NCBI GenBank assembly: GCA_000002445.1
Contig: CH464491.1
Location: forward strand, 3,104,001-3,168,000
Direction of reading: 5' to 3'
Source of the DNA: Trypanosoma brucei
Lineage: Eukaryota
DNA length: 64,000 nt
Shown here piece by piece: positions 3,809 through 45,344 of this stretch. Position numbers and translations under genes: made by a program. Every line of letters begins with the position of its first letter. Within the stretch, counting starts at the first letter, position 1. Below the pieces are notes generated by a model. That model did no database searches, was not told where the DNA came from, and saw only the letters and a list, made by a program, of their open reading frames with translations.

Positions 3809-6800
3809 TTGGGAGAGGGTGGAGCCATGGCCGATGAAGACGGTTCTGTTGAACCGACGTTAAAAGCGCATCGCTGGGAGATGTCCTCCTCCGCATCTGC
3901 AGCTCCCACAACATCGCGGTGGGGCGCGGGGACGCCACGGCAGCGTGGTGGCGACACCCCAAAAGTGGTCGTCAACACGGAGTTGTCGGCGTGGCGTGGG
4001 CATGCAACACCAACACCGAGTGCGTACGCGATGGATCCTGCGAAGACCCCAACCATGCGTGCCACTGGTGGTGCGACACCGGTGCAAGGAGGTCAAACTC
4101 CGATGTTTGGTGGGCAGACACCGGTATTTGGAGGTCAGACACCGGCATTCGGTAGTGGAACACCCATGTTCACGGGGGCAACACCCGCCGCTGGCATGGC
4201 CTTTGGTGCAACTCCGAATTACCAGTTTGAAGGGACAACGCCTGTGCAGTCCCACTTTGCGGGGGGTGAGTCACAATCAGCTGTTACGGCTAACATCGGA
4301 GCCCAGGCAAGGAAATTGGAAATGCAGTGGCGCGTTAAGAATAAGCGTCTTACAGAGGAGTATCTCGACTCGATCCTTCCACCGGAATTTAAGCTTGTGG
4401 AACCACCAGCCGATTACAACCCACCGCCCACGGAAGAGCCTAACTTCTACGAGCTTGCCAGTAAGTCGTTGGATGTCTTTGTTGTGAACCAAAACAGCGA
4501 TGCGGCAGCTTCTATGACTTATGATATACCAGAAAGTCTGGGAGACGGTATGCCACAAATGCAAACTCAAGATGCGCCTGTTTTCGAGGTTCTGCTCAAG
4601 TACCATAACGTGAACCCGATACCTGACGAGGTGCTTCCCTCCTACATGCTGATGAAGAACCTCTTCAAGATCAAGAATGGCGATACCAACCAACGGCGGA
4701 TCGCCATGCGGTACTTGCTAGACAAGGCACGTATTTTTGGGAGTGGACCTCTTTTCCAGTTTACATTTCACGTTTGGCGTTCGGGAATCCTCGACGTGAT
4801 TGAGCAACATTACTATGTGGACCTTGTGAAAGGTGCGATTTCCAGGTTACAGAAAGACGTCCGTGGCTCGAGCAAGGAGATCGTTCACATGATGGAAGTC
4901 TTGCTCTCCGCCCAGGAGCGGGTGCTACGAGATGATGGCAAGGAGGTTCTCATTTTGCTCACGCGTGTGGTAGGCTATGAAGCAGTTTTTGAGGCAATTA
5001 AGGAGGACTTTGCCCACGCGGAAAGCGGTGTGCGTCGTCACACCGCTAAAGTTGTTGCAATAATAGCGTTTGCTGTGGGGCCAGAAATAGCGATAAAGAT
5101 AATTCATGGTATGTCACTGTCTCCGGTTGCCCTCGCTCGTCAGACGTCTGCGCGGGCCATAACTGAAATGGCAACCATCCTCATGCACGCCATCACTGGA
5201 GAATTAGTGGAGCTTGTACCTATTTTTGAAAAACTTCTGCGGGATGAACCGCGGGTGAAACGGGAGGCCGCAAGCGCGCTTGCTCACGTGGCGGAGGCAA
5301 CCTACCCTTATGGAATTGAGGAGTTGGATTCCCTCGTTTATATTGTGCGAGAGGAATGTAAGCGCGGCATCGGTACCACCACGGGGTTGTTCGTCCGCGC
5401 GTTCGGTGCGCTCATTCCGCTAATGGCCCCATATGATGCTCAAAAATACACATCAGATATGCTTCCAACGCTTGTAAATCAGTTTAACACGCCAGACGAT
5501 GAGCATCGCCGCGTTTTGCTTCAAGTGGTGCGACAATGCGTCTCGGCTGATGGAGTGACTGTGGATTTCATTCGTAACGTCATCTTGAGGCCGTTTTTTG
5601 AAGGATTTTGGACCATCCGTCGCGTAGCTGCTGATAGGAAAACAGCCGGTATCCTTATTGATACGACGGTGGGAATTGCACGGCGTATTGGCAGCACGGA
5701 GATTCTTCAATACCTCGTTCAAGACATGAAAGACGAGAATGAGCATTTCCAACGTATGGTTGTTGAGACGGTAAGACGTGTTATTGCAAACGTGGGTGCA
5801 GTTGGTGTTCCCGACACTCTTGTTGCGCTGTTGATGGACGGTGCGATCGCGGCCGTAAAACAGGACGAGACTGGCTTGAACCGTGTGGTGATGGAAGGCC
5901 TGGCGACCATCTGTAATGCCCTCGGTACTCGCCTGAAGCGGCACTTACGGCAGATATTTGATCTCATAAAAAGCCGTCGCGACATGCCTGGGATGATCCG
6001 GATGCAGGCAGCCGAGCTGGCGGCTCGCATTGCCACAACCGTGAAGGATGCAGGAGGAGCGTTGTTCCTGCAGGATCTGGGGCGAAGCCTCTTTGACCGC
6101 CTAGAAGACGACGAGGCCGCCGTGATGAGTGCCAACCTCAAGGCAACACGTGTCATCTTGGTGGAGCTTGGTGCTGCGAGGTACCAACCGCCAGTGCGAG
6201 AGCTCTTAAAGAAGTTGATGTACATAATTCCGAATCGCAATAGCAATGTGCAGCTGAACACCATTTTACTTGTGGAGGAGATCGCAACTAATTGTGACGA
6301 GGACGTCGAGGCCATTCACTTACAAGAGTTGGCGACGAAAGGGTTGTTTGAGCTCCTTGATGCCCACCGTCGTGAAACACGGCGGGCATGCACACGCACA
6401 TTTGGTGTTATTGCGCGGAAGATTCGACCATTTGCCATAATCCTGGAGCTCGTCGATAACTTTAAGCAGGATAAACGTAAGATTCGTATTTGCACAGCGG
6501 TGGCCCTAGGGGCGATAGCCCGCGAATGCGGTGCCTTTACTGTTATTCCTTACCTCCTGAACGAAAGCAAAATATGTGAGGGGGAGCAGGTGGCCACGAT
6601 TGTGCAGCACTCCATTCTTAAGGCCGTTCGATACATCTTCGAAGCTATTGGTGCAGCCGGAAAGGACTTTGTGTATCCTCTCGTACCGCTGTTAGTGCGA
6701 GCACTGACGGAAATGGAGATCCAGCACCGGCGTATGGCGGTTGAGGCATGTCGGTCAATTGTGCTGGCGGTCGCCGGCAACGACGGATTCGAGGATCTGG

Positions 6801-7126
6801 TGATCCACTTCCTCAACTTTATCCACCCCAACATTGTGGAACTTCTTTCGCGGAACGAGACGAAAATAAGTGAGGAGAGGCTTAAGATGGTCACGGCGGT
6901 TGTTGGTTATTACGAGGCAGCGCGCCTGGTAATTGGTTCGGGGAAGTTGTTTCAGTATTTGCTTCAGGGGTTATTCCACCCAGCAAAGAAAGTACGTGAC
7001 ATTTACCGTAGGACATATAACATGGTATATATGGCAAGCCCAGAGGCCCTTGTGCCATATTACCCGCGACTGGGGGATGACAATGAGCATACATATGTAC
7101 GGCACGAGTTGGAGGTGCTACTGTAA
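3809..7126 (+). CDS. SF3B1: Splicing factor 3B subunit 1 (SF3b1/SAP155)
   Basis: 1105 aa. The N-terminal region has repeated TP dipeptides ([26 protein letters not shown]) as in SF3B1 ULM/TP repeats. The rest is HEAT-repeat rich. The C-terminus ...[50 protein letters not shown] closely parallels the conserved SF3B1 C-terminus (..[36 protein letters not shown]). Confidence 0.9.
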   Translation: [1105 protein letters not shown]

Positions 7127-20547: not shown

Positions 20548-21093
20548 ATGGATAGTGGGACCAAAAGGGAATTCGGTCGCAACGTGACGAATGTGGACGA
20601 CTTTAAGGGTGCCAAGTTAACGCCTTCAAAGATCCACCACCAGAAGTTTGAGGGCAGTGACAAACGCCATGGAGTCAGGTTGGCCGACGAAGGCAAGTGG
20701 TGTATTCACAAACGGAGCCGGGTGGAGCCTGTCGCCGCCGGGCCTTCACGTGAGAGGAGCGTGGAGGAGACAAAATCCACAACGACGTGCTGCTCCTTAC
20801 CTCTGCCAAGTCAGGAAACAAACCTCTGCAGCATTCGTGGCGACAGCAACACCTGCAGTAGCGATGACAGCAGCATTGAAAGGTACTTTGACGAAAGTTG
20901 CGAGGCTATCGAAGCTCCCACAGCTCCGGCGCCGCGACCTCCGTCACCGACATGGAATAATGCCTTGCGTACCGTATCGGGGACAGCTGCTGCCGTATTG
21001 CAGGACCTAAAAAATGCGGCATCCCTGCAAACTGACCAGAGCAGCAGTAGCGAGGTGCTGCCATCACCACCAGTAATTCCACTTATCTTGTAA
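20548..21093 (+). CDS. Hypothetical Ser-rich protein (181 aa)
   Basis: ORF preceded by a pyrimidine tract at ~20340-20440. Composition is partly low-complexity; no domain recognised. Confidence 0.3.
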   Translation: MDSGTKREFGRNVTNVDDFKGAKLTPSKIHHQKFEGSDKRHGVRLADEGKWCIHKRSRVEPVAAGPSRERSVEETKSTTTCCSLPLPSQETNLCSIRGDSNTCSSDDSSIERYFDESCEAIEAPTAPAPRPPSPTWNNALRTVSGTAAAVLQDLKNAASLQTDQSSSSEVLPSPPVIPLIL

Positions 21094-21672
21094 CAGGTTA
21101 TATCCCCTGACCTCTGATCCCGTGAGAGGTGAGCGTGCAAAGTACAAGGGGAATCTTCTGCAGCATGCATACAGGTGCTCGTTGAGTGTTGAGAATCTTT
21201 TCGAAAGCGCGGCACGAAGTGAAGGCTTCTGATCGGTTGTTGTTAACTTTCCTCACGCTTGTGAGTACAGACCCACACTTTCTCCTTAAGATCATTTTTG
21301 TACCCCCTTTTTATTCATTCACTGGTTGGGGAACTCTTCAGATAGATCCCGCTATCTTCAAAGCCTAAAGTTAAAGGGGCTTGATCATAGAGAGTGGGTA
21401 GCAGATCGTGAATGCAGGCTAGAAGAACGAGGAAGTTTCCCTCTTCTTCTGCATCGCAAGCGGATTGATTTGGTAGATAGCGGTTCATTGTTAAAGTTTC
21501 TAGCTTTGCCACTTTGTGGTCGAAGAAATTTTGAACATTTTGCTGTGTACTGCTCCCCCCGAAAATAAGTGTATATTTCCTTGTTGCCTTACGTCGGTGA
21601 CTGCTCGTACATTATTTTATTTTATTTTACTTGTCTATGGTTACTGTTTACGACACCACTGTCACCTAAAGT

Positions 21673-24129
21673 GTGAGACGGCGCAGCAGACCGCGGGCAC
21701 TGCACTTGTGGTCAGTATTGACTAATAAAGTAAATATCAGCCGAGCAAAAAGGCATCATACGGCAAGGGTAGGTCCAAACACATACACGCGTCTTCTGCA
21801 TATGTTGCGGCTCGTGCTGACGCTGCTAGCGAAGAAGAAGGTGCCACCTCCGCCAAAGCGGGGGCGACCCGCGACCCCCCAGCGAGGGAAGTCGAAGTTA
21901 GTTCCAAAGGGGCGCTCACCGTCGTTGACCCGAAAAGTGACACCGAAGGTCGTCAGCCGTCAGTCGCCTGCGAAAAAGAGCACGATCAAGGTATCCACTG
22001 CGAGGGTTAGCCGTAGGAGCGATAATAAAGGTAGGGGGAGCAAACTGATCGACGATGTGGACAGCTTTCCCGTGGCGGCTGCCGTGGAGCATGCGCCCGC
22101 CGTCGTCCCGTCAGTTGAGGTTGCAGCTACATCCACCGCGATGACGGTGACTAGAAAACCACACTACTCTCTCGCCACAGCTGTTTCAACTGTTATTGTC
22201 CCTCCCTGCGCGAACGCCGTGCTGGAGACGATGAAACAGACGCTCTCACCTTCCGTGAGATCTCCAAGTGAGGCTGGTGTCGACCTCTGCGGTGATGGGA
22301 GCGGTGTCGAGCAGGGCGGGGAGCCACCGTCACAAATGGAAGAATTTTACACGCCAAAGAAAGGACCTCTCTTTGCCACCGCTGTCATTGCCGGCACTAA
22401 TGCGGTTAAACAAACCAGTCAATTGATCCCCTTCTGCCACCCAGCGCGCATACACAAGTGCTCCTTTACCTTTAGGCGGCGCGTGCTTGGCGGCCTTACA
22501 CGCATTTCCTCCCTTCCTCATCGTGTTGTTTTGAGGAAAAGAGCAACACCTTCCCCTCATTCGAGCCGCAACCGTCCTGAGTGCAGCGTTATTTACTGCT
22601 TTTGTACGGTGGCAACAGATGATGAGACACGTTCCGGGGTAGAAATGGAGGCACTAGCTGGAGCAACGATGGCAGCACTCACAATGTACGACATGCTGCG
22701 CGCCCTTCCGTCTGCGCAGGAAGATGGAATCAGCGTTGGCGAAGCCTTTGTGCTGGCAAAGAGAGGTTCCCGTGGGGACTTTACGAAGCTCCTCGTATCT
22801 GAGCTTCCAGCGGAGGACTCGGCTGGTGCCATGGGCGAGGTAAGAAGAGCGGCATTAACCACAGGACGGGAGGATAACGCAAGTGAGGACAATTTCACAT
22901 ACGCTGATGACTATGAAAATCTAAGTGGTGGGGAAGGGCTGGAAACTGGAGTGGAGGAACACAGGAAAGTTGGAACTCTACAAACCTCCGGGTCGCGATG
23001 CGGAGGGTTAGACGATGGAGAGCACCAGTCAGAAGAATTCCACGGCGCTGCAGATGCCATTGATGGTGATGCTGCGAGGCGGGAGCGTCAGCGTGAGCGT
23101 GATGCAATTCTTGGTGAGGCAGAGGAAATGGAGGCGGAAGGGAGTGTTACCAACCCGGAAGAAGAGGAAAGGGCAATGCCGGAAGAGGCTGCCACTCTGA
23201 TAGATCGGAGCGCTTGGTGGAGGTCCACCGCACGGGATCGGAGACTGCAACATTTGCAGCAAAATATGAGACATGAAGGGAACTCAAATCGGTCGGCACC
23301 TCAGGCTCCGGCACACAAGTCACCGGAGGTGAGGCCACCGATGCAGAAGGATGCGATGAAGAAGTTAGGTGTGAAAAACAAACCTCAGGAGTTGCCGTTT
23401 CAAAGGCCAAAGATTATACCGGTGAGTAAAAAATCTGTGAAGCTTGTGGATAAGAATGGTGGTATCGCTGTTCCGAAGGGGCAGCGCGTAGTTGTGGTGG
23501 AGGACGAGTATTATGAGGAGAATGGGGATGAAGCACACGCCGACGATGAGATTTACGGTGGTGATGATAGTGAATATGAGGAACTTTACAACGACGATGA
23601 TGCTTTGGGGGACGAAACTGCATTGGAGTCCGAGGCGCAGCATAAGAAGTTGCTGAGGTACAAAAGTGGTGAGTCTGTTAGAGCGCAGACCACATCCAGG
23701 GGTGCCGTCAGCGTCCACAAGAAAGGAAGGGACTACCGTGATAATGACAGCTACAACGACGAGAATGCCAGCGAGGACGGTTTGTTTGAAGAGGAGATGG
23801 AGATGGGTTCACGACAGAAGGTTAAAAAGGGTAAAATAGTTCAGTCATTGCTTTCCCGAAGGGGAAATGCCAGGGCGACCGACGATAGCTACGATCACGA
23901 CAACCAGTCTGTGACATCTCCCAAACACGAATCGTGGGATGCCGAGGAAGCAAAGGAATGGGAAAGCGAAGAGGATGATTGGAGTAATATAAATATGCAC
24001 AATGAAACCGAGAGTGTAGCGAAGGGGCATCTGCACGCCAAAAGGCGTAATCCCCTCCCACTACCGAAGAAAAAGGAGATGAAATTCAAGAAGACTATCA
24101 AACAGAAACAACGCCCTGAGAAACGGTAG
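21673..24129 (+). CDS. Long protein (818 aa) containing a MoaC (cyclic pyranopterin monophosphate synthase accessory protein) domain, between a basic AT-hook-like N-terminal region and a long acidic C-terminal tail
   Basis: Residues ~225-375 align colinearly with bacterial MoaC: [28 protein letters not shown] ~ [52 protein letters not shown] ~ [36 protein letters not shown] ~ VRLLAKSGGKSGDF. The N-terminus has [15 protein letters not shown] (AT-hook-like RGRP). The C-terminal ~430 aa are D/E-rich and low-complexity. Confidence 0.7.
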   Translation: [818 protein letters not shown]

Positions 24130-24670: not shown

Positions 24671-24916
24671 GCTCAACTGGGAGACTGATATGTGTGGATT
24701 TTCGCGAAAAAAAAAATCCGGTGGTGTAAAGTGGTGTGGAACTGAGGAGAGAGGGCTTAAGTAAAACCATACCATTAAAAGTTGCACATGCGCAGCAGGA
24801 ACCTGTCCCCGTTTTCTACCTCCACATCGTGGCGGCGAGCACTTTGTATCAGTACAGCGGCTGAAACGCCCTCTTATTTTTCCTGCCTTCTCTTCTATAC
24901 TGTACGGCAGTCATCA

Positions 24917-25339
24917 ATGACACACTGCGCAAGTAAGAAGCAGGCAGATGGATCAAAAGATATTGGAGATGCCGCATGGAGGGAGAAGTTAACCACACAA
25001 GAGTACCGCGTGCTCCGTCAGAAGGCCACGGATCCGCCATTCGGGGCTTACAATACCCATTTTGAAACTGGGACATATCACTGCGCCGGCTGCGGAACAC
25101 TGCTTTATAAATCATCCATGAAGTTTCCCTGTGAGTGCGGCTGGCCAGCGTTCTTTGACTGCGTGCCGTTGGCTGTCCGTGAGGAGCCCGACAGTGATGG
25201 GGTCCGAACGGAAATTTTATGCAATGCGTGTGGAGGGCACTTGGGCCACGTGTTTCGTGGAGAGGGCTTCAATAATCCACCACCTAACGAACGACATTGT
25301 GTGAATGGAACAGCTATTCGTTTTCAATCCGAGAAGTAA
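24917..25339 (+). CDS. msrB: Peptide methionine sulfoxide reductase B (MsrB/SelR)
   Basis: ORF 24782..25339. From Met 24917 there are the two CxxC zinc motifs (YHCAGCGTLLYKSSMKF..CGWPAF and LCNACGGHLGHVFRGEG), the catalytic RHCVNGTAIRF (RYCINS-type) and conserved spacing. A 45-aa N-terminal extension is possible from the upstream ATG. Confidence 0.85.
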   Translation: MTHCASKKQADGSKDIGDAAWREKLTTQEYRVLRQKATDPPFGAYNTHFETGTYHCAGCGTLLYKSSMKFPCECGWPAFFDCVPLAVREEPDSDGVRTEILCNACGGHLGHVFRGEGFNNPPPNERHCVNGTAIRFQSEK

Positions 25340-30335: not shown

Positions 30336-33012
30336 TTGGCGAAGCGCTTGTAAGCACTGCTCAAAAGCATTTCCACACACACACACACACCTTCACGTTG
30401 TCGCGGAAACGGGGGAGGGGGGAAGGAAGGGGTGCATTTCCCTGTCGGAAAGTTTGCAATAAGTGGAAAGAGCTCGGGCATGCATAACCAAACGAAGCCG
30501 CTGTGTGCTTCTGTTTGTATTCTGCATAAAGTGCAAATATGAGTGGAACTGAAGGTGACTAGTCGTTTCTGACCCTTATCGTAGCGCACTCGTCCCGTCT
30601 CTGTAATTGCGCTGCCGCCGCATATAACCAACTTTGCAGGACCCACCCCTGCGCTGCGTTGCGCAGCGGCAAGAGTGAGGGCAAGGACGCAGTATTGCAC
30701 CCTTCCTTGCCCTATTATCGAAATCCTTTTGTGCGTACGCTTTGATTTGTGTGAATCCCTTTCTGCATTGGAAAATTGAAAACAAAAAAATACTTACACG
30801 TACCCGAAGAAGAGGCAAAAAAAGCCTTTTGATTTTGAATAACATACGTGGGCGCGTTGTTACTTGAATCGTGTTGATGCGGCGCCCATGGTGAAAAGCG
30901 TTGCAAAGGCGTTGTATCTCTATGGGGGTGCATCTCCTGCGTTCGACCTCCTCCCCACTTGATGAATTTGACAAGACACGATAGCGGCCAAATGAAGCAA
31001 GGGTAATTGAGTTTCTTGCGACGCCGGGAGGGCACGCATTCGGAGGGGAAGTTCCAAATTAGTTCAATAGCACAGGAGAGAATGGAAAGGAAGTAAACCG
31101 CGTGAATGTGATTCCTCCCACGGACCCGCCCCCCCCCCAGGATGTGAAAAAGGGCCAATGTTCCATGCCGGCGCTAAATTTCTCAGAGGGAAGGTCAGCA
31201 GCCTGCGGGAGCGGCGGGGTTGCGAGACACAAGTCAAAGCCAACGCACCGCGACTCGGAAAAGGTAGCGAAGGGCGAGGTTCATGAGGTGCTGCGCTTAG
31301 CAAAACCCCACAAACTCCGTTCCGCACTCCACACACCCACATGCCTCGCGCAAAACAAAAAACTGAGCACCCCGGAGCCTGTTTATTGGTACTCGTTTCA
31401 CCCCATCCGGGTGAACATTCACGATGTCGCCAACCCAAGCTGCCAGGTCCACAACCGGTAACAGCTTTGACAAAATGGCAAGCGGCTTTGCAGTGCTGAT
31501 CGATGCCCCGTTTGCCTTGCGACTCACGGCACTCCTCATCTGTGGAACATACGTTGAACCCCTAGAACATGCCAGCCGTAGACGAGTGCCACCGTCGACC
31601 ACGGGCCCTCACACCGGTTACCGCAGGTCACTCGGAAAGGAAGGGGGAGGCGGTCACGGGATGGCGAAGTCGGAGCGCAGGTCAGCGTGACAGAAAAGGA
31701 TAGCCGCATATCATCCGCATGAGCAATGTGGAAAACAACTGGGCGATTGGTTGAATGCAAGTGGGCACTGAAGAATCATGGGGCGTTTCCCCGCACCATC
31801 TCAAACCCCTGGAGGGTATCGTTACACGTGGAGATGCCGAATTTAGGCACCACCAATACAGCCGCACATACTTGCGTGACAGCCAAGTTCACTAGCCACA
31901 ACACGAAGAAGGCAGAATAGGTTAGATAAACCCAGAAGACTGGAAGAAGGATATTGGAAAACAGGAACGGTGCTGAACGGAAGGCCACCGGTGGTGTCTT
32001 CCTCGGATGAAGGCGGCGATGCCTGTTGGGAATTGTCCACCCGCCTCGGAGATTGCGGAAACAAGTGCGCTCAAACCTGCGGATGGCAGGCGCAAATAAA
32101 GGACATGCGGTGGGGAGCGGGAGGGGGGTACGACGAGAGGGCACTCAACGGGTTAAGGGATATACCGCCGAAAGAAAAAAAAGTGGATCAACGCACCCTC
32201 TCCTCTCCGCCGCAACCATTCCCAAAACCCTCCTTCTCACCTCTGTTGCCGTTCCCGGCCCGAGTGATGCGCACCGGTGTGAAGCCGAAGCCCTACTGCC
32301 CTGTGAAGTGCTTTTGAAAGATAACAGGATACGCCCAGTTACGAGGAAGCGAAAGTTTAGGTTGCAACGCCGCATGTGCGACCTTCGACGATTCCCTCCT
32401 GCTCTCAGTCGGTTGCGGGCACCTTCCTTCACATAGCCACGTGGCTTTCTCAGTCGTCTTTTTAGCTCAATCAGTCTTCCACATGTATTACCGCAGTGCG
32501 GAAGTCAGCGGGTTTCTGCTTACGTTTCCTTCTGCGACCTTCAAGCGCCTCCCCGCACCATGCGGTGGTCTCTAAACTGCATCTTTAATGTGATTTTGGG
32601 TGCGTGTCTGGCTCCTCCGAGCCTTCCACATTCCATGTTGGGCTACGGCTTCCCCTTGGTTCTTTCATCTTCGCTAACAACCGCGATCGCCCCATCCACT
32701 TTCCGTTCCGTTGCGCAGCATTCGGTAGACAAGCCGTTCCCCATTACCACCGGGAGCCATCTTAGTAACCCCATGAGGTCTCTTAGAAGTGCCTGCAGGC
32801 GCCCCGCACCAACACCTAACTCGTTATTCGCTCCGCTTCAAGGTTCCCAAGAGCCGCTCGCATTCCCCGATGCGTTGGGTTTCGGGAGCCACTTAATAGA
32901 ACAAAACTGAAGGTGTGCAACCTTCACTGCTACCCTCAGGCAGCCTATCTCAGAACGGCGATACACTATACCGAGGCGAAATTATTCCAGGCTTCTGCTG
33001 CCTAAAATTTAA

Positions 33013-35900
33013 AAACCCTAACCCAAGGAGCACACACACACATACAGACACATTGCATCAGTCAATAACGTCATTTAAGCATCGTCCGCACCACACTTAA
33101 AATACTGCTTTCAGCACTCAAACATTACTCAAACCACTCCTAACGCAGTTGAAGTGCTAATCTCAGAGTTACCTGGAGTACTCATAAATGGCTTTTCAAA
33201 TCAAATGGAGATCACCACACTAGTAAGGCATACAGGACTCGTTACAGCTCAGTATCTCAACACACAAAGAAGGAGGCAGCACAAAGCCCACCCCAAAACA
33301 GCACACATCACTATCCACAATTGTTCGTGGAGCATTCATTTGTGTTAGCGAGACGAGCACAAGAGGAGCAGTTGGTTTCAATCCTTAGTTTGCCGTTTGC
33401 ATAATACATGGTCGAAAACCAATGCCAATATGATTCCTCCTGTGATCTGTAAAATTAACGACCCAACAAAAATTACTAATGTAGGAGTGGGAGGTTCGGC
33501 AGGGTCACGCAGGAAAACGATCGGTGCCATTAAAGGATGCTACTACCATCCAACTCGGAAGCAAATACACGGCGGCATGCATGTGATCGATAAGGAATCA
33601 AATCAAATACAATAGTGAACCCTAGCGGCATCCAAACTGTTAAGAAGATTGACGCTCCGAAGGTGGGTGAGCCAGGATAAAAACAACCAAACAATTCAGT
33701 GGGACGAGTAAGTGACACAGAGGAACCCAATATGGCCAAGTCACAGAAACTATCAGTGGGTACCACAACAAATCTGCAGAAAAAATTAATGGCGTACACT
33801 TCGCAAAACAACGCTCATCCACCATATCAACTCTCCGGTGACACAGCAGCACCAAACAGGCGCCGAGTCACCTTCCAACCCAGGAGTTACTCAGTGTGAC
33901 ACACGTATATGTTGACTTTCATGCCACCACCAGTAGTACACTCACGCTGCTTCAAACCGTGTACCAGCTAACGGCAGGTATATTCATCCAGCACTATAAA
34001 GGAATTAAGCATCTAAGGATACGCAGGCCCTGCTGATTCTGAAACAGTCCCTAATACAATATTATCCTTACCACTAGAAGTAACTAAATTCATTAACAAT
34101 CATGAGGGATATAAAGATAGCAATCGGTTTCTGGAAAAGCACCGAACCAACAGTAAAGAGAAAGTCAACAACGCAGCCACAAGCGTCGAGTTACCAAGGA
34201 GGGGGGCGGTGGTTGGAAGTATTAACGACACATAACGCGCACAACAACTGCCCAATTAAGACGCTTTGCACCCTAAGATCCCCATCAATTCATTTAACAA
34301 ACAAAGAAAGGGATGAGAGGCGGGACTATCATACAGCCACGCTGCTAAGCCTTCCTACGTTAATGCAGAGTGCGGCGGATGTGACAGCAACCCCCCAAAC
34401 CAACAGAAAAAACTCAAGGAAATTATTCTTTACTTTGTATGTGCGTTCTTCTTTCATACATCATTCGGTAGCACTGCTATAGTCAGGAGAACAGAAGCGG
34501 CTTTATTAAAGAGCAATTGCCATTCCCTTAACAACACATCATCTCCTTTAACCAAACCCCATATCTCCTTCTTTCCGATTCTTGTTCCACTCAACTTTAC
34601 ATATCCACAGATGGCTCCTTAGAGGGTTTCTTCCCCCTCGCAGTTAACGAGCCGCTCGGCCTTTGCCTCCGAATGCCGTCCATCTTCTCTTTCATTTCAG
34701 CCATCTGTTCCGCAAGCTTGGTGCGTGCGGCACTCAGCTTCGACAGTTTATCCTTAACTTCATCCTCGGCTTTAATTATATCGGCCTTCTGCTTCTCCAG
34801 GCCCTTCAATCTGAACTGCAGGTCCTTCATATTCTTATCGAACAGATTGTCCTGACTCCTCATGTCACCCATCAGCTCGGTCATTAAGTCCATGTTTTGC
34901 TTCCGGAACTCCGCTTCGCGCCGCGTAATGACGGCTTGCATTTCGATGAGTCTCCGGTCCATGGTTTATTGGGATTCCTTACCGAAGTATCACTTTAAGA
35001 ATATCAGACTGCAGTAGAGGTCTTCACTGCAGTACGTAATAGCTATTCTGAATATATACACAGAACGCTATATTACGTTGTCCAAAAATATTTATATTCT
35101 CCCCGCTGTTTTACCTTTCGTTGTTCTTTCAATACGAGCCTCAGCAAAAAGAAAAAAAATGATTTACAAAAATAGCCTAATACAGGATGCTTTGTCTAGG
35201 TATCGCAAACACTTGAAAAATCTGCAACTAGTAAGGAGGAAGAAGGCACAAATTGGGAGATGGCTGTGACAGTTGTAGTGTCCATAAAATAATTAGCATA
35301 TTACTAGACACGGGAATATGGAGAGAGTACACTTAGCCACACACCAGTAGCGCTACCGGATCTCTGATACACATTTTCACAACCGCAACAGCATCTTATC
35401 TTGTTCCTTGTAGAAGATCCCATTGTTCACACTCATTAAGGAAGCATTAAATCGTCTCATACATAATAGAAAGGTGCTGTGGTAAAGAGAGTGGAAATCC
35501 GCCTTATGGAAGTTAAAGAGGGAATCCATAACCCAACCGGTGCACTTCACGGAATAAATTAAAGCGCACGTATCCACGTATGCACATATTGGTAAAGTTA
35601 GCAAATGCAACACAGATGACAGAGGTACCGAACACCAAACAAATATATTATCAAAGTCTTCAATAATCACATGGTGTGGCAAAATCATGAAAGATACACC
35701 GAACAAAGCGGCACGTGTCACGACTAGAGGTGTGAATGGCAAACGGCGAACAAAACACAGTCAATCAGACACCAAGCCATACGAGCATCAGGTAACTCCT
35801 AAGCGAGCCCTTCAACAGGAAAGAAGCAAAGTAACATTTTTCATCACTTGAAGGACTCCCTTCCAGTTATTGCAAGGTTAGTAAGCAGATGTCGGTTCCC
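33013..35900 (+). repeat. Repeat unit copy A1 (full-length, direct orientation) of a ~2.9 kb element present three times
   Basis: Near-identical to 38988-41105 (offset 5202 nt; only one difference found in the stretches compared) and to the reverse complement of 43860-46905. Identical ORF translations recur at 33154/46572, 33699/46021, 34102/39304, 34597/39799/44808 and 35377/40579/44028. The first ~1.6 kb is strongly A/C-rich on the + strand. Confidence 0.9.
34597..34962 (-). CDS. 121-aa coiled-coil ORF carried by the repeat unit (copy in A1)
   Basis: MDRRLIEMQAVITRREAEFRKQNMDLMTELMGDMRSQDNLFDKNMKDLQFRLKGLEKQKADIIKAEDEVKDKLSKLSAARTKLAEQMAEMKEKMDGIRRQRPSGSLTARGKKPSKEPSVDM has heptad-like, charged, non-random composition and is identical in all three copies. 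No family recognised. Confidence 0.3.
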   Translation of the reverse strand: MDRRLIEMQAVITRREAEFRKQNMDLMTELMGDMRSQDNLFDKNMKDLQFRLKGLEKQKADIIKAEDEVKDKLSKLSAARTKLAEQMAEMKEKMDGIRRQRPSGSLTARGKKPSKEPSVDM

Positions 35901-38199
35901 TGGCTTGAATGCAAACGATGATGGTGTTGTTTGGAAATAAGCAGTGCCTATCCTTGGATGTTTTACGTTTTTTTCAGCAATTTTTCTGCGATAATGAAAA
36001 ATACCGTTCCCTCGGCTGCTTTGCGCTCCACTCCGCAGGTGACGAATATAGTTTACTAACCATATCCTGATCATCCTCACTTGATATCTTCCATAGCACG
36101 GAAGCTGTCCCGTTCATCTCGTCGGGCGGGGATCTACTTTGTAGTGATTTAATGCCACAACGGTGCACATATGATTCACGGAGCCGAATGTTCTTGTATA
36201 AACCATACGGTTCCCACCACCGTCTTTCTTTCTTTTCTTCGCCCCAGCTTAGTGGCCTAAGCAGCTTTGCCGCAACGCCTACCGTCGATCTCTTGGGTTA
36301 GGGCCCTGATTGTTGCGGCTGAGGTAAATGGTTCGGGTAATCTTTCAACCTGAGAGCAATATTCCATCCCATTAGTTTGCGGGCGGTGCTCTCAAGGGTT
36401 GCTAGCCGGAGCAATATCACATCTGCTGCGGATTTGCTTGCATTCGGGAAGTGGTATTATAATGCCCTTCCCTCCGCTTCTTCGGTGCTACACTGTGTTC
36501 CACACAGTGGCTATACAGTTTCGGTAGGTTTTTTTGTCCCCGCCGAGCTTCTATAATCCCACGCACGCATTTTCCCTGTGGACACCGTTCTCACGGATAA
36601 TCCACTTAACACTAACTTTAATTCCTCCATGGCAAGCAAGATGTGCATATAATTCCCTACCCCAGGCAGCGCCGTCTCCGGAGTCCCTAGAACCTTTGCG
36701 AATTCCCTCCTGCTAATCCCTGCAGTTGCCTTTTCTTTGCTGCTTTTGCACCCGGTGGTACCTGCCATGTACCACCACTGGGGTGCTCCGCAGCGTTGGT
36801 GCATATGCCGCATTTACTAAGCTCTGGGTTCATGACTCAGTGAGATTGTGTACACACCCACTGCTACCGCGCGTTCCCTCCAGTGCAGCATACATGGTGA
36901 CAGTGTCATGGCTGTCACGGGTTATGCCAAATATGTTCACACAAGCGTGTATTTATGGGCACTTTTCTGGTGTTAGTCTAACCGACGCTCTTCTAAACTC
37001 TCCCGTTTGTCCTGGCCAATGCACCACATACGTACAGCCCTCTATCGCCACTGACACCCTTAACTCCTTAAGGTGCCATGCTATTCGAGTGTTCCGGAAA
37101 ACCAGGTATCACTTTGCCTTCTACTCGTTCACCGCCCAGACACAACCCCCGCGTAATGCGAAGTCCACCTTAGTCTTCGTGAATGTACTTTGCCAACGCA
37201 AGTCTTTTCAGCTGGGGGAGGACTAAAGTATTCTACCGCGATCCACGTGAAATAGGATCTGTGGTGTTTTTTTTTCCGATATTACCACGCACGGTATCAG
37301 TGGTAGCAAAGCACATATAATCAAAAAAGCGTGCTTTCACGCCCAGTAGATAATAAAGATATCCCTCGCCACCACCGGAGGGGTTACGGCGTTGCTGTAT
37401 GCCCCCACCGTAGTGAACAATGGCAGTTCGGCGGCGTCAATATCCAAAGACTGAGTGATGCAGAAACTTGGTTTGTCCTACAAGGGTATCCGCACAAGAT
37501 GCATGTGCGACACCCCTACTTGCATGCAGAACAGGTGCCTGTTGTGCAACTTCGAAAGCAAATTAGGTCGTTTCTCCGTAACGCATTAAGCTGGGTGAGG
37601 ACAATCATTTAACATCAGAGGACACTGTAAAGGTGTAAGAAGTCTTAGCGGTCGCGCACAGTCAATGCGACAAACACATTCATGTTGTCCTGTGTTTAGT
37701 GCCACAGCCAGAATAAAGGAGCCTGCAGTAGAAAGTAATAAGCTCCTTTCCGCCCCCACCCCGTTCAGGTAGCAGTTCCGTGTTCCCCCATGGTGGGGTT
37801 CCTGTGGAGGCCAATCAACACTGAAAAATATTGGCAACAAAACGAGACTCAGCGAAGAGTAGGCAAACAAAATAAAAAAAAAGTGCAATTGCTCTGCCTA
37901 ACACACTGTTGTTATAGTATCCCTGAGTCCGGAAGGCGGCGCCCCATGCATCGCGCAACGTCACAAAGTCAACCAAACACAGAGAGCATGCAGATTGATA
38001 TCACACGGAAATGATGAACATTCGTCCGTCAGAGGAGGGGAAATAGCGACGGCACGCGCCACTTATCTCGAGAACACGGTAACAAGCACGGCAGCAAACG
38101 ATACGACCCGCACTTAAATATTTCTTTACTTTTCATTGTCTACATACCAGAAACGCAACACCGCCATATCTCTTAAAATCTGCACACCCTTTCATTTCT

Positions 38200-38987
38200 G
38201 CGCACTAGTTTATGAAAAAAAAACAAAGAGTCCCCAAGACAAGCTTGATGCCCAGAAACCACAGTTACTAAACGGTACATCACATTCTTCAGTGCTTCCC
38301 CCTACACCAAAAAGTTGGAAAAACAAACAAACATATGCTACATCAACATTACGACACTGCAGAGCTCCAGAGACATGATTCACACATGCAGAAACAATTA
38401 AAGACAAAACAACTAAAGGACAGAGATGACATATTTTTGTAATAACAATATGGGCACCAACATTTTTCGGAAGATCAGCTAAGGGTAAAAAAAACATATA
38501 TACACATCAGATCCAACCTACAAAATTCAACAAAAAGGAAAGCACAGCAAAAGATCTAGCAAATATATGTAGTAAAACAGAAACGAAGACACAGCAATTA
38601 TTTATATTATTAAAATTACAAATTCTAAACACATTTTAATAAATCAACAAAGCTCCAAGAATGTCAAAAAAAAAAACACGTAACCCACAACAATAAACAA
38701 AACAGGAAACCGCCACCCACAAAAACTGCAACAGCCAACAAAATAGGATTAAACAAAAAAATGAAAAACCCCTCCGTCACCATAAAAACAAATTAATAAT
38801 ATACTAAGAAGAAAAAGCAACCATCCACCACCGAACACAAAAAAATAAGAATATAATATATAAAAAATAAAAAAATTCTAACAAATTATACGGAAGTGGA
38901 ATCTAAATGTAAATATATACAACACCGACTAAAAATCATAAAAAAACAAGAGCAAAAAATACATGAGCATAATTGACAACAAAAAAA
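38200..38987 (+). repeat. ~800 bp A/C-rich low-complexity tract (poly-A runs, acaaaa-like motifs) immediately 5' of repeat copy A2
   Basis: Direct reading: extreme A richness with almost no G/T on the + strand (..caaaaaaaaaaacacgtaacccacaacaataaacaaaacaggaaacc..). Confidence 0.85.
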
Positions 38988-41668
38988 TTAATGGCGTACA
39001 CTTCGCAAAACAACGCTCATCCACCATATCAACTCTCCGGTGACACAGCAGCACCAAACAGGCGCCGAGTCACCTTCCAACCCAGGAGTTACTCAGTGTG
39101 ACACACGTATATGTTGACTTTCATGCCACCACCAGTAGTACACTCACGCTGCTTCAAACCGTGTACCAGCTAACGGCAGGTATATTCATCCAGCACTATA
39201 AAGGAATTAAGCATCTAAGGATACGCAGGCCCTGCTGATTCTGAAACAGTCCCTAATACAATATTATCCTTACCACTAGAAGTAACTAAATTCATTAACA
39301 ATCATGAGGGATATAAAGATAGCAATCGGTTTCTGGAAAAGCACCGAACCAACAGTAAAGAGAAAGTCAACAACGCAGCCACAAGCGTCGAGTTACCAAG
39401 GAGGGGGGCGGTGGTTGGAAGTATTAACGACACATAACGCGCACAACAACTGCCCAATTAAGACGCTTTGCACCCTAAGATCCCCATCAATTCATTTAAC
39501 AAACAAAGAAAGGGATGAGAGGCGGGACTATCATACAGCCACGCTGCTAAGCCTTCCTACGTTAATGCAGAGTGCGGCGGATGTGACAGCAACCCCCCAA
39601 ACCAACAGAAAAAACTCAAGGAAATTATTCTTTACTTTGTATGTGCGTTCTTCTTTCATACATCATTCGGTAGCACTGCTATAGTCAGGAGAACAGAAGC
39701 GGCTTTATTAAAGAGCAATTGCCATTCCCTTAACAACACATCATCTCCTTTAACCAAACCCCATATCTCCTTCTTTCCGATTCTTGTTCCACTCAACTTT
39801 ACATATCCACAGATGGCTCCTTAGAGGGTTTCTTCCCCCTCGCAGTTAACGAGCCGCTCGGCCTTTGCCTCCGAATGCCGTCCATCTTCTCTTTCATTTC
39901 AGCCATCTGTTCCGCAAGCTTGGTGCGTGCGGCACTCAGCTTCGACAGTTTATCCTTAACTTCATCCTCGGCTTTAATTATATCGGCCTTCTGCTTCTCC
40001 AGGCCCTTCAATCTGAACTGCAGGTCCTTCATATTCTTATCGAACAGATTGTCCTGACTCCTCATGTCACCCATCAGCTCGGTCATTAAGTCCATGTTTT
40101 GCTTCCGGAACTCCGCTTCGCGCCGCGTAATGACGGCTTGCATTTCGATGAGTCTCCGGTCCATGGTTTATTGGGATTCCTTACCGAAGTATCACTTTAA
40201 GAATATCAGACTGCAGTAGAGGTCTTCACTGCAGTACGTAATAGCTATTCTGAATATATACACAGAACGCTATATTACGTTGTCCAAAAATATTTATATT
40301 CTCCCCACTGTTTTACCTTTCGTTGTTCTTTCAATACGAGCCTCAGCAAAAAGAAAAAAAATGATTTACAAAAATAGCCTAATACAGGATGCTTTGTCTA
40401 GGTATCGCAAACACTTGAAAAATCTGCAACTAGTAAGGAGGAAGAAGGCACAAATTGGGAGATGGCTGTGACAGTTGTAGTGTCCATAAAATAATTAGCA
40501 TATTACTAGACACGGGAATATGGAGAGAGTACACTTAGCCACACACCAGTAGCGCTACCGGATCTCTGATACACATTTTCACAACCGCAACAGCATCTTA
40601 TCTTGTTCCTTGTAGAAGATCCCATTGTTCACACTCATTAAGGAAGCATTAAATCGTCTCATACATAATAGAAAGGTGCTGTGGTAAAGAGAGTGGAAAT
40701 CCGCCTTATGGAAGTTAAAGAGGGAATCCATAACCCAACCGGTGCACTTCACGGAATAAATTAAAGCGCACGTATCCACGTATGCACATATTGGTAAAGT
40801 TAGCAAATGCAACACAGATGACAGAGGTACCGAACACCAAACAAATATATTATCAAAGTCTTCAATAATCACATGGTGTGGCAAAATCATGAAAGATACA
40901 CCGAACAAAGCGGCACGTGTCACGACTAGAGGTGTGAATGGCAAACGGCGAACAAAACACAGTCAATCAGACACCAAGCCATACGAGCATCAGGTAACTC
41001 CTAAGCGAGCCCTTCAACAGGAAAGAAGCAAAGTAACATTTTTCATCACTTGAAGGACTCCCTTCCAGTTATTGCAAGGTTAGTAAGCAGGTGTCGGTTC
41101 CTTGGCCCAATAGATAATCTTCCTTATTGATGCTCACATTCAATACGCCGAAAGAAATGGTACGGTGCGATTACCACCTCGGAAAAAAGCTCCACCCATG
41201 TAATGGATCCCCAATATAAGGGGCGTGCAACCTGGAAAGAAGGGCAAAAATAAAAAAGAGCCATCGCGGTTACACCTCGCCTTTACGCACTGTATGTGAT
41301 GTTCATGCCAAGCACACCCGTACTCCGCTACGTCCTCGCTGGCTCTGGAATCCCGCTGCCATGGAGGGGTGCCCACTCATGGTGGGGATGAAGACGCGTG
41401 GCGCCTGCCGCGCTGGGCAGGGGGGCGGGGGAAAGCGGAGGGAGGCCAGGCGACGTTTTTAACCGCCTGTGCGTCTCAGATTATCACCCCATATAGCACT
41501 GACCTACCCAGATTGGGAATTGCGAGCTCATTACCACTTCGTAAAAGATGGAACGACCAACACACGGCAACCAGCACATCGGCCCACGCACCCCTCCCTT
41601 CTCCACCAGGGGAGAAGCAAGAGTAGTGAATGCGACACCGCCTTGGGCATCTCACTGCGTTACCGCGG
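38988..41668 (+). repeat. Repeat unit copy A2 (direct orientation; 5'-truncated relative to A1; carries a 560 bp extension shared only with the inverted copy). Left arm of the long palindrome
   Basis: 38988-41105 matches A1 33782-35900. 41105-41668 is matched only by the reverse complement of 43296-43860. The arm ends at ...gcatctcactgcgttaccgcggcc. Confidence 0.9.
39799..40164 (-). CDS. 121-aa coiled-coil ORF (copy in A2)
   Basis: Identical translation to 34597..34962. Confidence 0.3.
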   Translation of the reverse strand: MDRRLIEMQAVITRREAEFRKQNMDLMTELMGDMRSQDNLFDKNMKDLQFRLKGLEKQKADIIKAEDEVKDKLSKLSAARTKLAEQMAEMKEKMDGIRRQRPSGSLTARGKKPSKEPSVDM

Positions 41669-43295
41669 CCCTACATCAACCGGATGCCCGAGTGAAATAG
41701 GATGGCCGCACTAAATAATATACTAGCAACCGCGGACCTGGCTTCTGGTAGACCCGTTGTTTTTATTGGCGATATAATTTTTTTTGTTTAAGCTTGTTAC
41801 ACCACTTTTTGTAGTTTGCTGAATAGGTATCTCCTTATATCTCTTGTCATCGGTATTAGATAACGGTAAAGGTGCTGAGCTGAATGTGGAGGTTTTACCT
41901 TTTTTCATTGGAAGCTGACCTATTATGTGCGTTAGGGTCTTAAGGCATTAAATGTTGCTATGAGCAGAGGGGTATATTGCCTTCAGCGCGTGTGTGTCTT
42001 CTCTGGGTGTGCGGTGCTTCCTTCCCAGAGAGGCACACCGTTCGCGACCAAAGGTCTGTTTAAAACCGTTGCTTCAGGTGTGCCGGCGGCCCTTCAACAT
42101 GATTGTTCTCGAACACTGTTTTGTTTAGCTGACTATGTGGACTTAAGGTAGGGAAAATACACTACCTTATTTAAACATTTTAGCACAAAAAATAAATCAG
42201 CAATTGCGGGGGATTTTACAAGTAACCTTTTGTTTCAACTGAAATCAGGAATACAAGGGTCGAATCTTCAGCGGAAATGGTGGCCTACCAAGTTAAGGAT
42301 ACAAAACTGACGGAGCACAAAACCACATCTGGACTCATGCGTAGACCGCGCCACTGTAGTGCCGAGTCATGTGTCAGAGTGAGAGGCGCCTTTGACAACA
42401 CGACTGGACAACTACTCGATTTCCCGTTTCAATATGCGCCACTCCGCCTAAGCATATTCTGCGCTCACTTTCAGGTGAAACGACCTCCAGAAGAGGAAAA
42501 GGTAAAATTAAAGCAGCAGAGCAACAACATGAGCAACCGTGAAAACAATAGATGCAAGTAACAGCATTCTGTAACAGAGGGCGCGTGTTCTGCGCGAAGT
42601 GCGTGTTAAGGGCTGGTGAAAGCCGCCGCCACTCAAAGAAAATTGGTTACTTAGCCCCGCCAAATCCCTGTATTTTAGTTTGGCCGCGCCCTTGTTGCTC
42701 CAGCCGCACGGCGTACACGCGTATTAGCATAGAATTCTCAACCATTCTTCCCGTATAATCTTAAACCTCTTCGGGGGAGCGTAATTGACTAACGCCACGC
42801 CTGAACGTATCTAAGGGCCTTCTGGAAATAATTTTTGCCTTGCAACGGATCTAGTGCGCTCCCCACTATGAGTTGATACCGTTGCCTTTCCGCCCCACTT
42901 TAATCCTCGTAGAATAAGATGAAGCCGCTCGGCTTTCGCTATCCGAGTAGGGTGCCGGAGCCTGGTAGCACGTTTGGGTGGCCCGCATCGCCAGGAGAAA
43001 CGAAATTATATCATTTCCCGCGATACACACCAAAACTTAACAAATACACCAGAGGCTAACTATTTCTTTACATTAGGCACTTCCTGCCAAAACAGCTGAT
43101 CGACACCGTCTCAACAAATGTAAGGCGTGGCTGTGAGCCTTCCTGGGGTCAGGAGGCGGCGGCGATGCAAGTGCCGGTTGGCGCCGGGGTGCCTGAATCG
43201 TTTGGGACTGTGGCCAGCACCCTTCGTATAAAACGCTTGCGAGTCGCCGGCCCCTCACGATTTGAGCATTACGTGCTTGTTGGCATTGAGGTTAC
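41669..43295. other. Unique ~1.6 kb central spacer of the palindrome (no repeat partner, no ORF over 100 aa)
   Basis: Flanked by exact inverted copies: 41369..41626(+)/43346..43603(-) and 41469..41714(+)/43255..43503(-) give identical translations on opposite strands. The sequence between the points where the arms diverge is single-copy in this window. Confidence 0.8.
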
Positions 43296-44807
43296 AGTGC
43301 TGGCCGCGGTAACGCAGTGAGATGCCCAAGGCGGTGTCGCATTCACTACTCTTGCTTCTCCCCTGGTGGAGAAGGGAGGGGTGCGTGGGCCGATGTGCTG
43401 GTTGCCGTGTGTTGGTCGTTCCATCTTTTACGAAGTGGTAATGAGCTCGCAATTCCCAATCTGGGTAGGTCAGTGCTATATGGGGTGATAATCTGAGACG
43501 CACAGGCGGTTAAAAACGTCGCCTGGCCTCCCTCCGCTTTCCCCCGCCCCCCTGCCCAGCGCGGCAGGCGCCACGCGTCTTCATCCCCACCATGAGTGGG
43601 CACCCCTCCATGGCAGCGGGATTCCAGAGCCAGCGAGGACGTAGCGGAGTACGGGTGTGCTTGGCATGAACATCACATACAGTGCGTAAAGGCGAGGTGT
43701 AACCGCGATGGCTCTTTTTTATTTTTGCCCTTCTTTCCAGGTTGCACGCCCCTTATATTGGGGATCCATTACATGGGTGGAGCTTTTTTCCGAGGTGGTA
43801 ATCGCACCGTACCATTTCTTTCGGCGTATTGAATGTGAGCATCAATAAGGAAGATTATCTATTGGGCCAAGGAACCGACATCTGCTTACTAACCTTGCAA
43901 TAACTGGAAGGGAGTCCTTCAAGTGATGAAAAATGTTACTTTGCTTCTTTCCTGTTGAAGGGCTCGCTTAGGAGTTACCTGATGCTCGTATGGCTTGGTG
44001 TCTGATTGACTGTGTTTTGTTCGCCGTTTGCCATTCACACCTCTAGTCGTGACACGTGCCGCTTTGTTCGGTGTATCTTTCATGATTTTGCCACACCATG
44101 TGATTATTGAAGACTTTGATAATATATTTGTTTGGTGTTCGGTACCTCTGTCATCTGTGTTGCATTTGCTAACTTTACCAATATGTGCATACGTGGATAC
44201 GTGCGCTTTAATTTATTCCGTGAAGTGCACCGGTTGGGTTATGGATTCCCTCTTTAACTTCCATAAGGCGGATTTCCACTCTCTTTACCACAGCACCTTT
44301 CTATTATGTATGAGACGATTTAATGCTTCCTTAATGAGTGTGAACAATGGGATCTTCTACAAGGAACAAGATAAGATGCTGTTGCGGTTGTGAAAATGTG
44401 TATCAGAGATCCGGTAGCGCTACTGGTGTGTGGCTAAGTGTACTCTCTCCATATTCCCGTGTCCAGTAATATGCTAATTATTTTATGGACACTACAACTG
44501 TCACAGCCATCTCCCAATTTGTGCCTTCTTCCTCCTTACTAGTTGCAGATTTTTCAAGTGTTTGCGATACCTAGACAAAGCATCCTGTATTAGGCTATTT
44601 TTGTAAATCATTTTTTTTCTTTTTGCTGAGGCTCGTATTGAAAGAACAACGAAAGGTAAAACAGAGGGGAGAATATAAATATTTTTGGACAACGTAATAT
44701 AGCGTTCTGTGTATATATTCAGAATAGCTATTACGTACTGCAGTGAAGACCTCTACTGCAGTCTGATATTCTTAAAGTGATACTTCGGTAAGGAATCCCA
44801 ATAAACC

Positions 44808-45173
44808 ATGGACCGGAGACTCATCGAAATGCAAGCCGTCATTACGCGGCGCGAAGCGGAGTTCCGGAAGCAAAACATGGACTTAATGACCGAGCTGATG
44901 GGTGACATGAGGAGTCAGGACAATCTGTTCGATAAGAATATGAAGGACCTGCAGTTCAGATTGAAGGGCCTGGAGAAGCAGAAGGCCGATATAATTAAAG
45001 CCGAGGATGAAGTTAAGGATAAACTGTCGAAGCTGAGTGCCGCACGCACCAAGCTTGCGGAACAGATGGCTGAAATGAAAGAGAAGATGGACGGCATTCG
45101 GAGGCAAAGGCCGAGCGGCTCGTTAACTGCGAGGGGGAAGAAACCCTCTAAGGAGCCATCTGTGGATATGTAA
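44808..45173 (+). CDS. 121-aa coiled-coil ORF (copy in A3, here on the + strand)
   Basis: Identical translation to 34597..34962 and 39799..40164. Confidence 0.3.
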   Translation: MDRRLIEMQAVITRREAEFRKQNMDLMTELMGDMRSQDNLFDKNMKDLQFRLKGLEKQKADIIKAEDEVKDKLSKLSAARTKLAEQMAEMKEKMDGIRRQRPSGSLTARGKKPSKEPSVDM

Positions 45174-45244
45174 AGTTGAGTGGAACAAGAATCGGAAAGA
45201 AGGAGATATGGGGTTTGGTAAAGGAGATGATGGTGTAAGGAATG

Positions 45245-45344
45245 NNNNNNNNNNNNNNNNNNNNNNNNNNNNNNNNNNNNNNNNNNNNNNNNNNNNNNNN
45301 NNNNNNNNNNNNNNNNNNNNNNNNNNNNNNNNNNNNNNNNNNNN
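45245..45344. other. Assembly gap (exactly 100 N) inside repeat copy A3
   Basis: Run of n characters. The sequence on both sides repeats ggggtttggt(t)aaaggagatgatg, so the gap sits in a locally duplicated or collapsed motif. Confidence 0.95.

Follow-up and report, generated by a model that had tools for sequence, protein, structure and literature searches.

Tb927.11.11920 of Trypanosoma brucei carries a degenerate MoaC fold between charged tails and may act at the kinetoplast

The 64,000-nucleotide stretch of Trypanosoma brucei DNA analysed here (contig CH464491.1, positions 3,104,001 to 3,168,000; hereafter the window) contains, on its forward strand, an open reading frame (ORF) at 21673–24129 that belongs to Tb927.11.11920, a gene of T. 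brucei chromosome 11 also listed as Tb11.01.3750 and UniProt Q382Y9 (85.4 kDa) and publicly annotated as "molybdenum cofactor biosynthesis protein, putative". The gene, its name and its entries in proteomic tables are already known; a literature search across 7.7 million full texts found no paper that names or discusses it. An earlier note on this DNA had described an 818-aa protein in which a MoaC domain, known from molybdenum cofactor (Moco) synthesis, is embedded between an AT-hook-like basic N-terminus and a ~430-aa acidic tail. The ORF is present as described, but its 818 codons were counted from a GTG by an ORF finder using the bacterial code, whereas translation from the first ATG at 21802 (M44 of the ORF) gives 775 aa, the length in the public record. 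This protein has exactly the sequence of XP_829254.1 from T. b. brucei TREU927. The features of the locus are as follows, with disorder judged by the AlphaFold predicted local distance difference test (pLDDT):

21612–21671, forward strand: candidate spliced-leader acceptor, a polypyrimidine tract at about 21612–21636 followed by the first AG at 21670–21671
21802–24129, forward strand: Tb927.11.11920 coding sequence, 775 aa plus stop, placed by the first ATG, identity to XP_829254.1 and the orthologue-conserved N-terminal motif
21802–21840, forward strand: conserved amphipathic N-terminal helix of 13 residues (helix aa 2–10, pLDDT ~70)
21841–22152, forward strand: disordered, highly basic region with abundant K, R, S, P and A (pLDDT < 50)
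22153–22803, forward strand: MoaC-like core, aa 118–334 (Pfam E-value 3.1e-21, AlphaFold and Foldseek)
22240–22347, forward strand: insertion 1, ~36 aa, between helix alpha1 and the K51-equivalent lysine, variable in sequence and predicted disordered
22483–22581, forward strand: insertion 2, 33 aa, in the beta2-beta3 hairpin, predicted disordered (pLDDT < 50)
22804–24039, forward strand: long disordered mixed-charge, net acidic C-terminal region (pLDDT < 50 except one helix)
23212–23280, forward strand: AWWRS…RLQ helix motif, W472 and W473 invariant (helix aa 477–489, pLDDT ~67)
23920–23940, forward strand: PKHESWD, the short motif V.H.SWD, recognised by orthologue conservation
24040–24126, forward strand: basic C-terminal end (…RPEKR), equivalent to PPP.KKKLKK..KRR in orthologues

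The candidate spliced-leader AG lies ~130 nt upstream of the ATG at 21802, and a reading of the sequence finds no ATG in between; AG 21670–21671 is a plausible acceptor site for Tb927.11.11920.

The presence of a MoaC domain is borne out by both sequence profile and fold. The Pfam MoaC family (PF01967) matches ORF residues 228–365 with an E-value of 3.1e-21 and 76.3 bits against a gathering cut-off of 27, the match spanning only profile positions 35–135 of 136. The AlphaFold model of aa 114–339 (predicted template-modelling score, pTM, 0.63) has strands and helices in the order of MoaC, and the only solved structures that its fold matches are those of MoaC: in a Foldseek search against the PDB, the top 28 matches are all MoaC (probability 1.0, E-value 1e-9), with template-modelling scores of 0.60–0.75 when normalised to the target. 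The tails contain no second Pfam or NCBIfam domain. PDB MoaC chains align as two blocks, ORF residues 229–271 and 320–370, which confirms an insertion in the fold. This is insertion 2, which separates CHP from GVEMEAL by 64 residues, compared with 31 in E. coli MoaC; it was seen in the earlier note, although it comprises 33 residues and not 35. Insertion 1, which precedes the KKGPLF segment carrying K51, had been missed. Insertion 2 holds an invariant 10-residue basic motif at 22513–22542, and its residues P239, H240, V242, V243, L244, R245 and R247 are invariant in 17 aligned sequences.

This architecture is conserved throughout Trypanosoma, Leishmania, Leptomonas, Phytomonas and Angomonas, and in deep-branching relatives that appear bodonid-like. 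A first database search retrieved 28 proteins, all kinetoplastid and 570–1160 aa long, and a profile search of 1.84 billion representatives returned 14 long forms at 339–404 bits, followed by a clear gap. These 14 include an Angomonas protein of 403 aa, and the orthologues sampled range from 400 to 1160 aa. Common to the orthologues are the start motif M[LF][RH]..…LAKKK, N-terminal regions with a net charge of +11 to +55, a MoaC core alignment with 70-odd invariant residues, and both insertions together with the invariant 10-residue motif of the second. The helix motif AWW..[ED][RK][RK].Q is found in all 20 orthologues scanned, the V.H.SWD motif and the basic C-terminal end are also conserved, and the tails, 290–620 aa in length, are net acidic in nearly all cases. 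Conservation of the start motif, insertions, AWW helix, HxSWD and basic C-terminus along the whole length refutes one possibility left by the earlier note, a short real gene within a fortuitously open ORF, and favours the other, an unusual extension of MoaC. The gene models of L. major (P0021), L. braziliensis (P0026) and Phytomonas (P0017) take as their start a Met within the MoaC fold (MKH/QxLTPA) and so lack the conserved N-terminus, strand beta1 and helix alpha1, all of which other Leishmania models contain; these starts are probably mis-annotated.

In the full-length AlphaFold model, 580 of the 775 residues have pLDDT < 50 (~75% predicted disordered), and the folded parts are the core, the N-terminal helix at aa 2–10 and the AWW helix alone. 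The N-terminus resembles a mitochondrial presequence; the basic N-terminal region has a histone-H1-like composition, with a net charge of about +19 to +21 and no acidic residue before aa 74. The 13-residue "AT-hook" stretch of the earlier note (aa 18–30, 21853–21891) contains RGRP at aa 20–23. RGRP occurs in T. brucei only, T. cruzi having RRGRA and T. vivax, T. rangeli and Leishmania having no RGRP, and the Pfam AT_hook family gave no match at E ≤ 1; what holds across orthologues is only the basic character of this region, and the AT-hook core is specific to T. brucei. The description of an acidic tail needs a similar qualification, as the last 441 residues are net acidic (net charge -26, 22% D+E) but of mixed charge, with 16% K+R.

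To compare catalytic residues, the long forms were set against 91 canonical MoaCs, E. coli MoaC and 11 shorter relatives, hereafter short forms, in E. coli numbering; two segments of the E. coli reference sequence were checked against the PDB-chain alignment. The long forms keep K51, G52, T57, A58, G62, K67, P74, C76, G110–L116 (GVEMEAL), Y127-D128-M129, K147 and GG149–150, but have lost H6, M15–V18 (MVDV), T24, R26, R68, T69, T109 and R143. At position 131 Trypanosoma has R and Leishmania K, while residue 77, still H in T. brucei, is Y, Q or N in other orthologues. We take K51, H77, E112, E114, D128 and K131 to have pocket or catalytic roles, from the titles of PDB entries 4PYA and 1EKS; the roles of MoaC active-site residues were reportedly described by Hover and colleagues in 2015. 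The N-terminal segment H6…MVDV..K21..T24.R26, conserved in canonical MoaC, is degenerate in T. brucei. The scores against TIGR00581 (72.1 bits, cut-off 141.5) and NF006870 (77.9 bits, cut-off 162) both fall below the NCBIfam equivalog cut-offs.

MoaC is a hexamer (trimer of dimers) with its active site at the dimer interface and is regarded as a single-purpose enzyme; we know of no role for it outside Moco synthesis. Whether the organism retains the rest of the Moco pathway, a check proposed in the earlier note, is answered in the negative by the literature, in which Kinetoplastida are listed among the lineages without molybdenum utilisation, by loss (Peng et al. 2018, PMC6147048). In the parts of the T. 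brucei proteome tables that were searched, the sole "molybd*" annotation is that of Tb927.11.11920 itself. Given the reported loss, a MoaC enzyme with extensions is probably the wrong function for this protein. Tb927.11.11920 is probably not a Moco enzyme and most likely no longer makes cyclic pyranopterin monophosphate (cPMP).

Compared with MoaC from E. coli, T. thermophilus (TTHA1789), human (MOCS1B) and plants (CNX3), Tb927.11.11920 shares the ferredoxin-like fold and retains KG(51–52), K67 and K147-GG. It differs in being five times longer, ~75% predicted disordered and interrupted by two insertions, the second of which holds an invariant basic motif; in the loss of MVDV..K..T.R, R68, T69, T109 and R143, a variable H77 and scores under the equivalog cut-offs; and in a host lineage that is reported to lack the Moco pathway. 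Plant CNX3 is a eukaryotic MoaC that is targeted to mitochondria. Known MoaC fusions (MoaC/MoaB PRK03604, MoaC/MobA PRK14500, MoaC/MOSC PRK14499 and MOCS1A-B) likewise place MoaC inside a larger polypeptide, yet they pair it with other folded Moco enzymes, whereas the extensions of Tb927.11.11920 are disordered and charged with short conserved motifs, and its weak partial matches to the fusion models come through the MoaC part only.

The nearest relatives outside the long-form group are the short forms, metagenome proteins of ~210–300 aa from uncultured kinetoplastid-like eukaryotes (P0033–P0046; one sits on contig L003). They score 104–152 bits in the profile search, a range that overlaps with that of ordinary MoaC proteins, which reach ~110 bits. 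Like the long forms, they have the VPP motif, AGTNAVK, YDMLKG.PGAQ, MLRR-type presequences and Ser/acidic C-terminal tails with a basic end, and their two basic insertions fall at matching sites. Unlike them, they keep every invariant checked (H6, MVDV, K21, T24, R26, T69, H77, T109 and K131) and lack a 13-residue motif of the long forms, HxSWD and the 400–600-aa tail; they may be working MoaC enzymes. Contig L003 (ENA metagenome, 14.5 kb) carries intronless genes, all on one strand, and its short MoaC with canonical motifs (L003:2676–3551) adjoins an MPP-alpha-like M16 peptidase (L003:3997–5475) whose named relatives are trypanosomatid only. The one-strand intronless array and these relatives indicate that L003 is most likely from an uncultured kinetoplastid, a lineage that may still make Moco. 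For the short-form cluster P0034 and for the MPP-alpha relative P0288 alike, the longest contig measures 5647 bp, suggesting that the two genes are neighbours there as well.

The orthologue from Angomonas deanei, an endosymbiont-bearing trypanosomatid, is much shorter than Tb927.11.11920 (P0031, 403 aa). Alone among the long forms it keeps the canonical N-terminal MoaC motif, THVD..MVDISNKRPSYR, and it has the AWW motif without most of the acidic tail, making it a natural intermediate. An evolutionary path may be drawn in which an ancestral mitochondrial MoaC would first have acquired insertions and tails, and the lineage leading to trypanosomatids would then have shed part of the catalytic signature and gained new conserved motifs.

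Two published proteomic datasets bear on the location of the protein and point to the mitochondrion, not the nucleus. In ImportOmics, in which the mitochondrial import pore ATOM40 was depleted, the ATOM40-RNA interference (RNAi)/control ratio of Tb927.11.11920 is 0.49 (p 0.012) in the organelle-enriched fraction, a value from only 2 peptides quantified in two of three replicates; for whole cells the ratio is 0.74 (p 0.10) (Peikert 2017). In hyperLOPIT (Moloney 2023), in which classes were assigned by TAGM-MAP for bloodstream forms (BSF) and procyclic forms (PCF), Tb927.11.11920 and five reference proteins are placed as follows, with t-SNE map coordinates:

Tb927.11.11920: BSF microtubule structures 1 (p 1), PCF mitochondrion - matrix 2 (p 0.999999); BSF -87,-25; PCF -56,-28
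PRI2, kinetoplast DNA (kDNA) primase, Tb927.1.4010: BSF microtubule structures 1, PCF matrix 2; BSF -84,-26; PCF -50,-33
KP86, validated kinetoplast protein, Tb927.10.15660: BSF microtubule structures 1, PCF matrix 2; BSF -81,-25; PCF -53,-29
RGG2, general matrix: matrix 2 in BSF and PCF; BSF -44,-53; PCF -71,-52
MRP1, general matrix: matrix 2 in BSF and PCF; BSF -43,-46; PCF -71,-43
HslV, general matrix: matrix 2 in BSF and PCF; BSF -39,-23; PCF -77,-50

Tb927.11.11920 therefore has the same class as PRI2 and KP86 in both stages and an adjacent map position, within about 7 units of them in either stage and 15–50 units from RGG2, MRP1 and HslV. Its raw BSF fraction profile peaks with PRI2, KP86 and p197, a protein of the tripartite attachment complex (TAC). 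The class split between BSF and PCF was also noted for TAC proteins (Moloney 2023). In composition, the protein is like the H1-like kinetoplast-associated proteins (KAPs) in that its MLR-type presequence leads into a basic stretch rich in Lys, Ala, Ser and Pro, although it has no sequence homology to KAPs, PRI2 or KP86.

Taken together, we regard it as an evenly balanced proposition that Tb927.11.11920 is a kinetoplastid-specific mitochondrial protein, built on a degenerate MoaC fold with charged tails, that acts at the kinetoplast, a function that we infer. A bolder version, in which the sole Moco-pathway remnant of kinetoplastids has turned into a structural kinetoplast protein that organises or helps replicate the catenated mitochondrial DNA, is possible but rather doubtful; it would combine an oligomeric core bearing a new basic surface with DNA-binding basic tails and chaperone-like acidic tails. 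In the mechanism that we propose for the main reading, the conserved N-terminal presequence would direct import of the protein through ATOM40. The MoaC-derived core would then form a compact module, presumably oligomeric as MoaC is a hexamer, that may keep much of the old phosphate- and nucleotide-binding pocket and would have acquired a conserved basic surface made up of FRRR and the 10-residue motif of insertion 2, which bring in additional invariant Arg and Lys residues. The H1-like basic N-terminal tail and the acidic C-terminal tail would make the particle multivalent, enabling it to bind kDNA and/or basic kDNA-packaging or replication proteins at the kinetoplast, with the AWW helix and HxSWD as likely sites of partner binding. 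Oligomerisation, binding of DNA or protein, loss of cPMP synthase activity and the kinetoplast role itself are all steps that we infer beyond import and co-fractionation.

Several observations weigh against the kinetoplast proposal. Apart from the small peptide count behind the import ratio, Tb927.11.11920 is absent from the 331 new mitochondrial candidates identified from gradient-purified mitochondria (Peikert 2017). The controls for co-fractionation are few, two positive and three negative, and co-fractionation is not imaging. The protein is not listed in the TrypTag supplement searched, was not found in the TAC-discovery supplements and is not named in the main text of a 2024 kinetoplast-protein preprint. 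The absence of MoaA and of the later Moco steps from trypanosomatids is derived from the literature, and the invariant pocket residues (K51, K67, E112, E114, D128, K147 and K/R131) could mean that some catalysis has been retained.

This last point leads to the alternative that survives best, though we consider it unlikely: the MoaC-like core would still be catalytic in the mitochondrion on a different, probably GTP-derived or phosphorylated, substrate, with the tails serving to target or regulate it. All long forms without exception have K51, G52, K67, E112, E114, D128, K147 and GG149–150, with K or R at position 131. Pocket residues held this tightly where Moco is missing suggest selection for ligand binding, and K51 and D128 are the focus of the mutant and ligand structures of MoaC (PDB 4PYA, 1EKS). 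However, MVDV, T24, R26, R68, T69, T109 and R143 are lost, some lineages have Y, Q or N in place of H77, and the conserved residues also lie in the MoaC structural core and subunit interface, so that folding may be the sole reason for their retention. This alternative also has no known candidate substrate.

We reject as highly improbable that the protein is a bona fide cPMP synthase in a residual Moco pathway, as its database name says. In its favour, the Pfam match exceeds the gathering score, the protein has K51 and D128, the main catalytic residues, and the N-terminal MVDV..K..T.R is complete in Angomonas deanei and in the short forms. Nevertheless, this N-terminal strand motif and several further invariants are lost in Trypanosoma and Leishmania, the scores lie far under the NCBIfam equivalog cut-offs in a group reported to lack molybdenum utilisation, and the parts of the T. 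brucei proteome tables searched list no further protein named "molybd*". Equally little credence can be given to a nuclear or nucleolar chromatin protein with an AT-hook, an acidic tail and a C-terminal basic end resembling a nuclear localisation signal, which we likewise reject: RGRP, the acidic tracts and the basic C-terminus do resemble nucleolar or high-mobility-group-type proteins, but RGRP is not conserved beyond T. brucei, the protein level falls upon ATOM40 knockdown, and hyperLOPIT never assigns the protein to the nucleus, placing it in PCF in mitochondrion - matrix 2 with near certainty. Finally, an annotation artefact, with a short MoaC as the real gene and a frame around it that is open by chance, can be dismissed as next to impossible, since, although low-complexity tails evolve fast and align poorly and some models (L. 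major, L. braziliensis and Phytomonas) begin at an internal Met, 20 orthologues have the start motif, AWW helix, HxSWD and basic C-terminus in corresponding places, chance would not be expected to leave 818 codons open at 50% GC, and the internal-Met starts would cut into the MoaC fold itself.

Elsewhere in the window, SF3B1 (Tb927.11.11850) lies at 3809–7126. A 181-aa ORF with an ATG start at 20548–21093 on the forward strand, between gamma-COP and the MoaC-like gene, has no Pfam match and may be the skipped locus number Tb927.11.11910. The gene downstream of Tb927.11.11920, at 24782–25339 on the forward strand, encodes methionine sulfoxide reductase B (SelR, E-value 7e-37). In the EukProt model P0027, from a distant kinetoplastid-like organism, a MoaC-like protein is joined to a SelR domain; with SelR located downstream of Tb927.11.11920, this reflects a conserved gene order merged by the gene caller and no real fusion. 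No tRNA and no Rfam RNA were found in the window. The region 33005–46915 contains inverted repeats that are 100% identical (39750–41670 and 43302–45222; 34548–35904 and 43866–45222; 33005–33984 and 45936–46915) and a direct duplication of 5202 bp at 33780 and 38982. The GC skew changes sign in this region, GC falls to ~0.40, there is no ORF of at least 250 aa, and its small ORFs have no Pfam match; it looks like a strand-switch region with a palindromic duplication.

If Tb927.11.11920 does have a structural role at the kinetoplast, it would represent, to our knowledge, the first non-Moco role for the MoaC fold, and an enzyme fold would have outlived its pathway by hundreds of millions of years to be rebuilt as a parasite-specific mitochondrial protein. 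It would also put right a misleading annotation now found across all TriTryp genomes and supply a new candidate component of the kinetoplast, a drug-target structure whose parts list is not yet complete. The apparently canonical short forms, the intermediate Angomonas protein and the degenerate long forms would then provide a natural experiment on which residues of MoaC serve the fold and which serve its chemistry.

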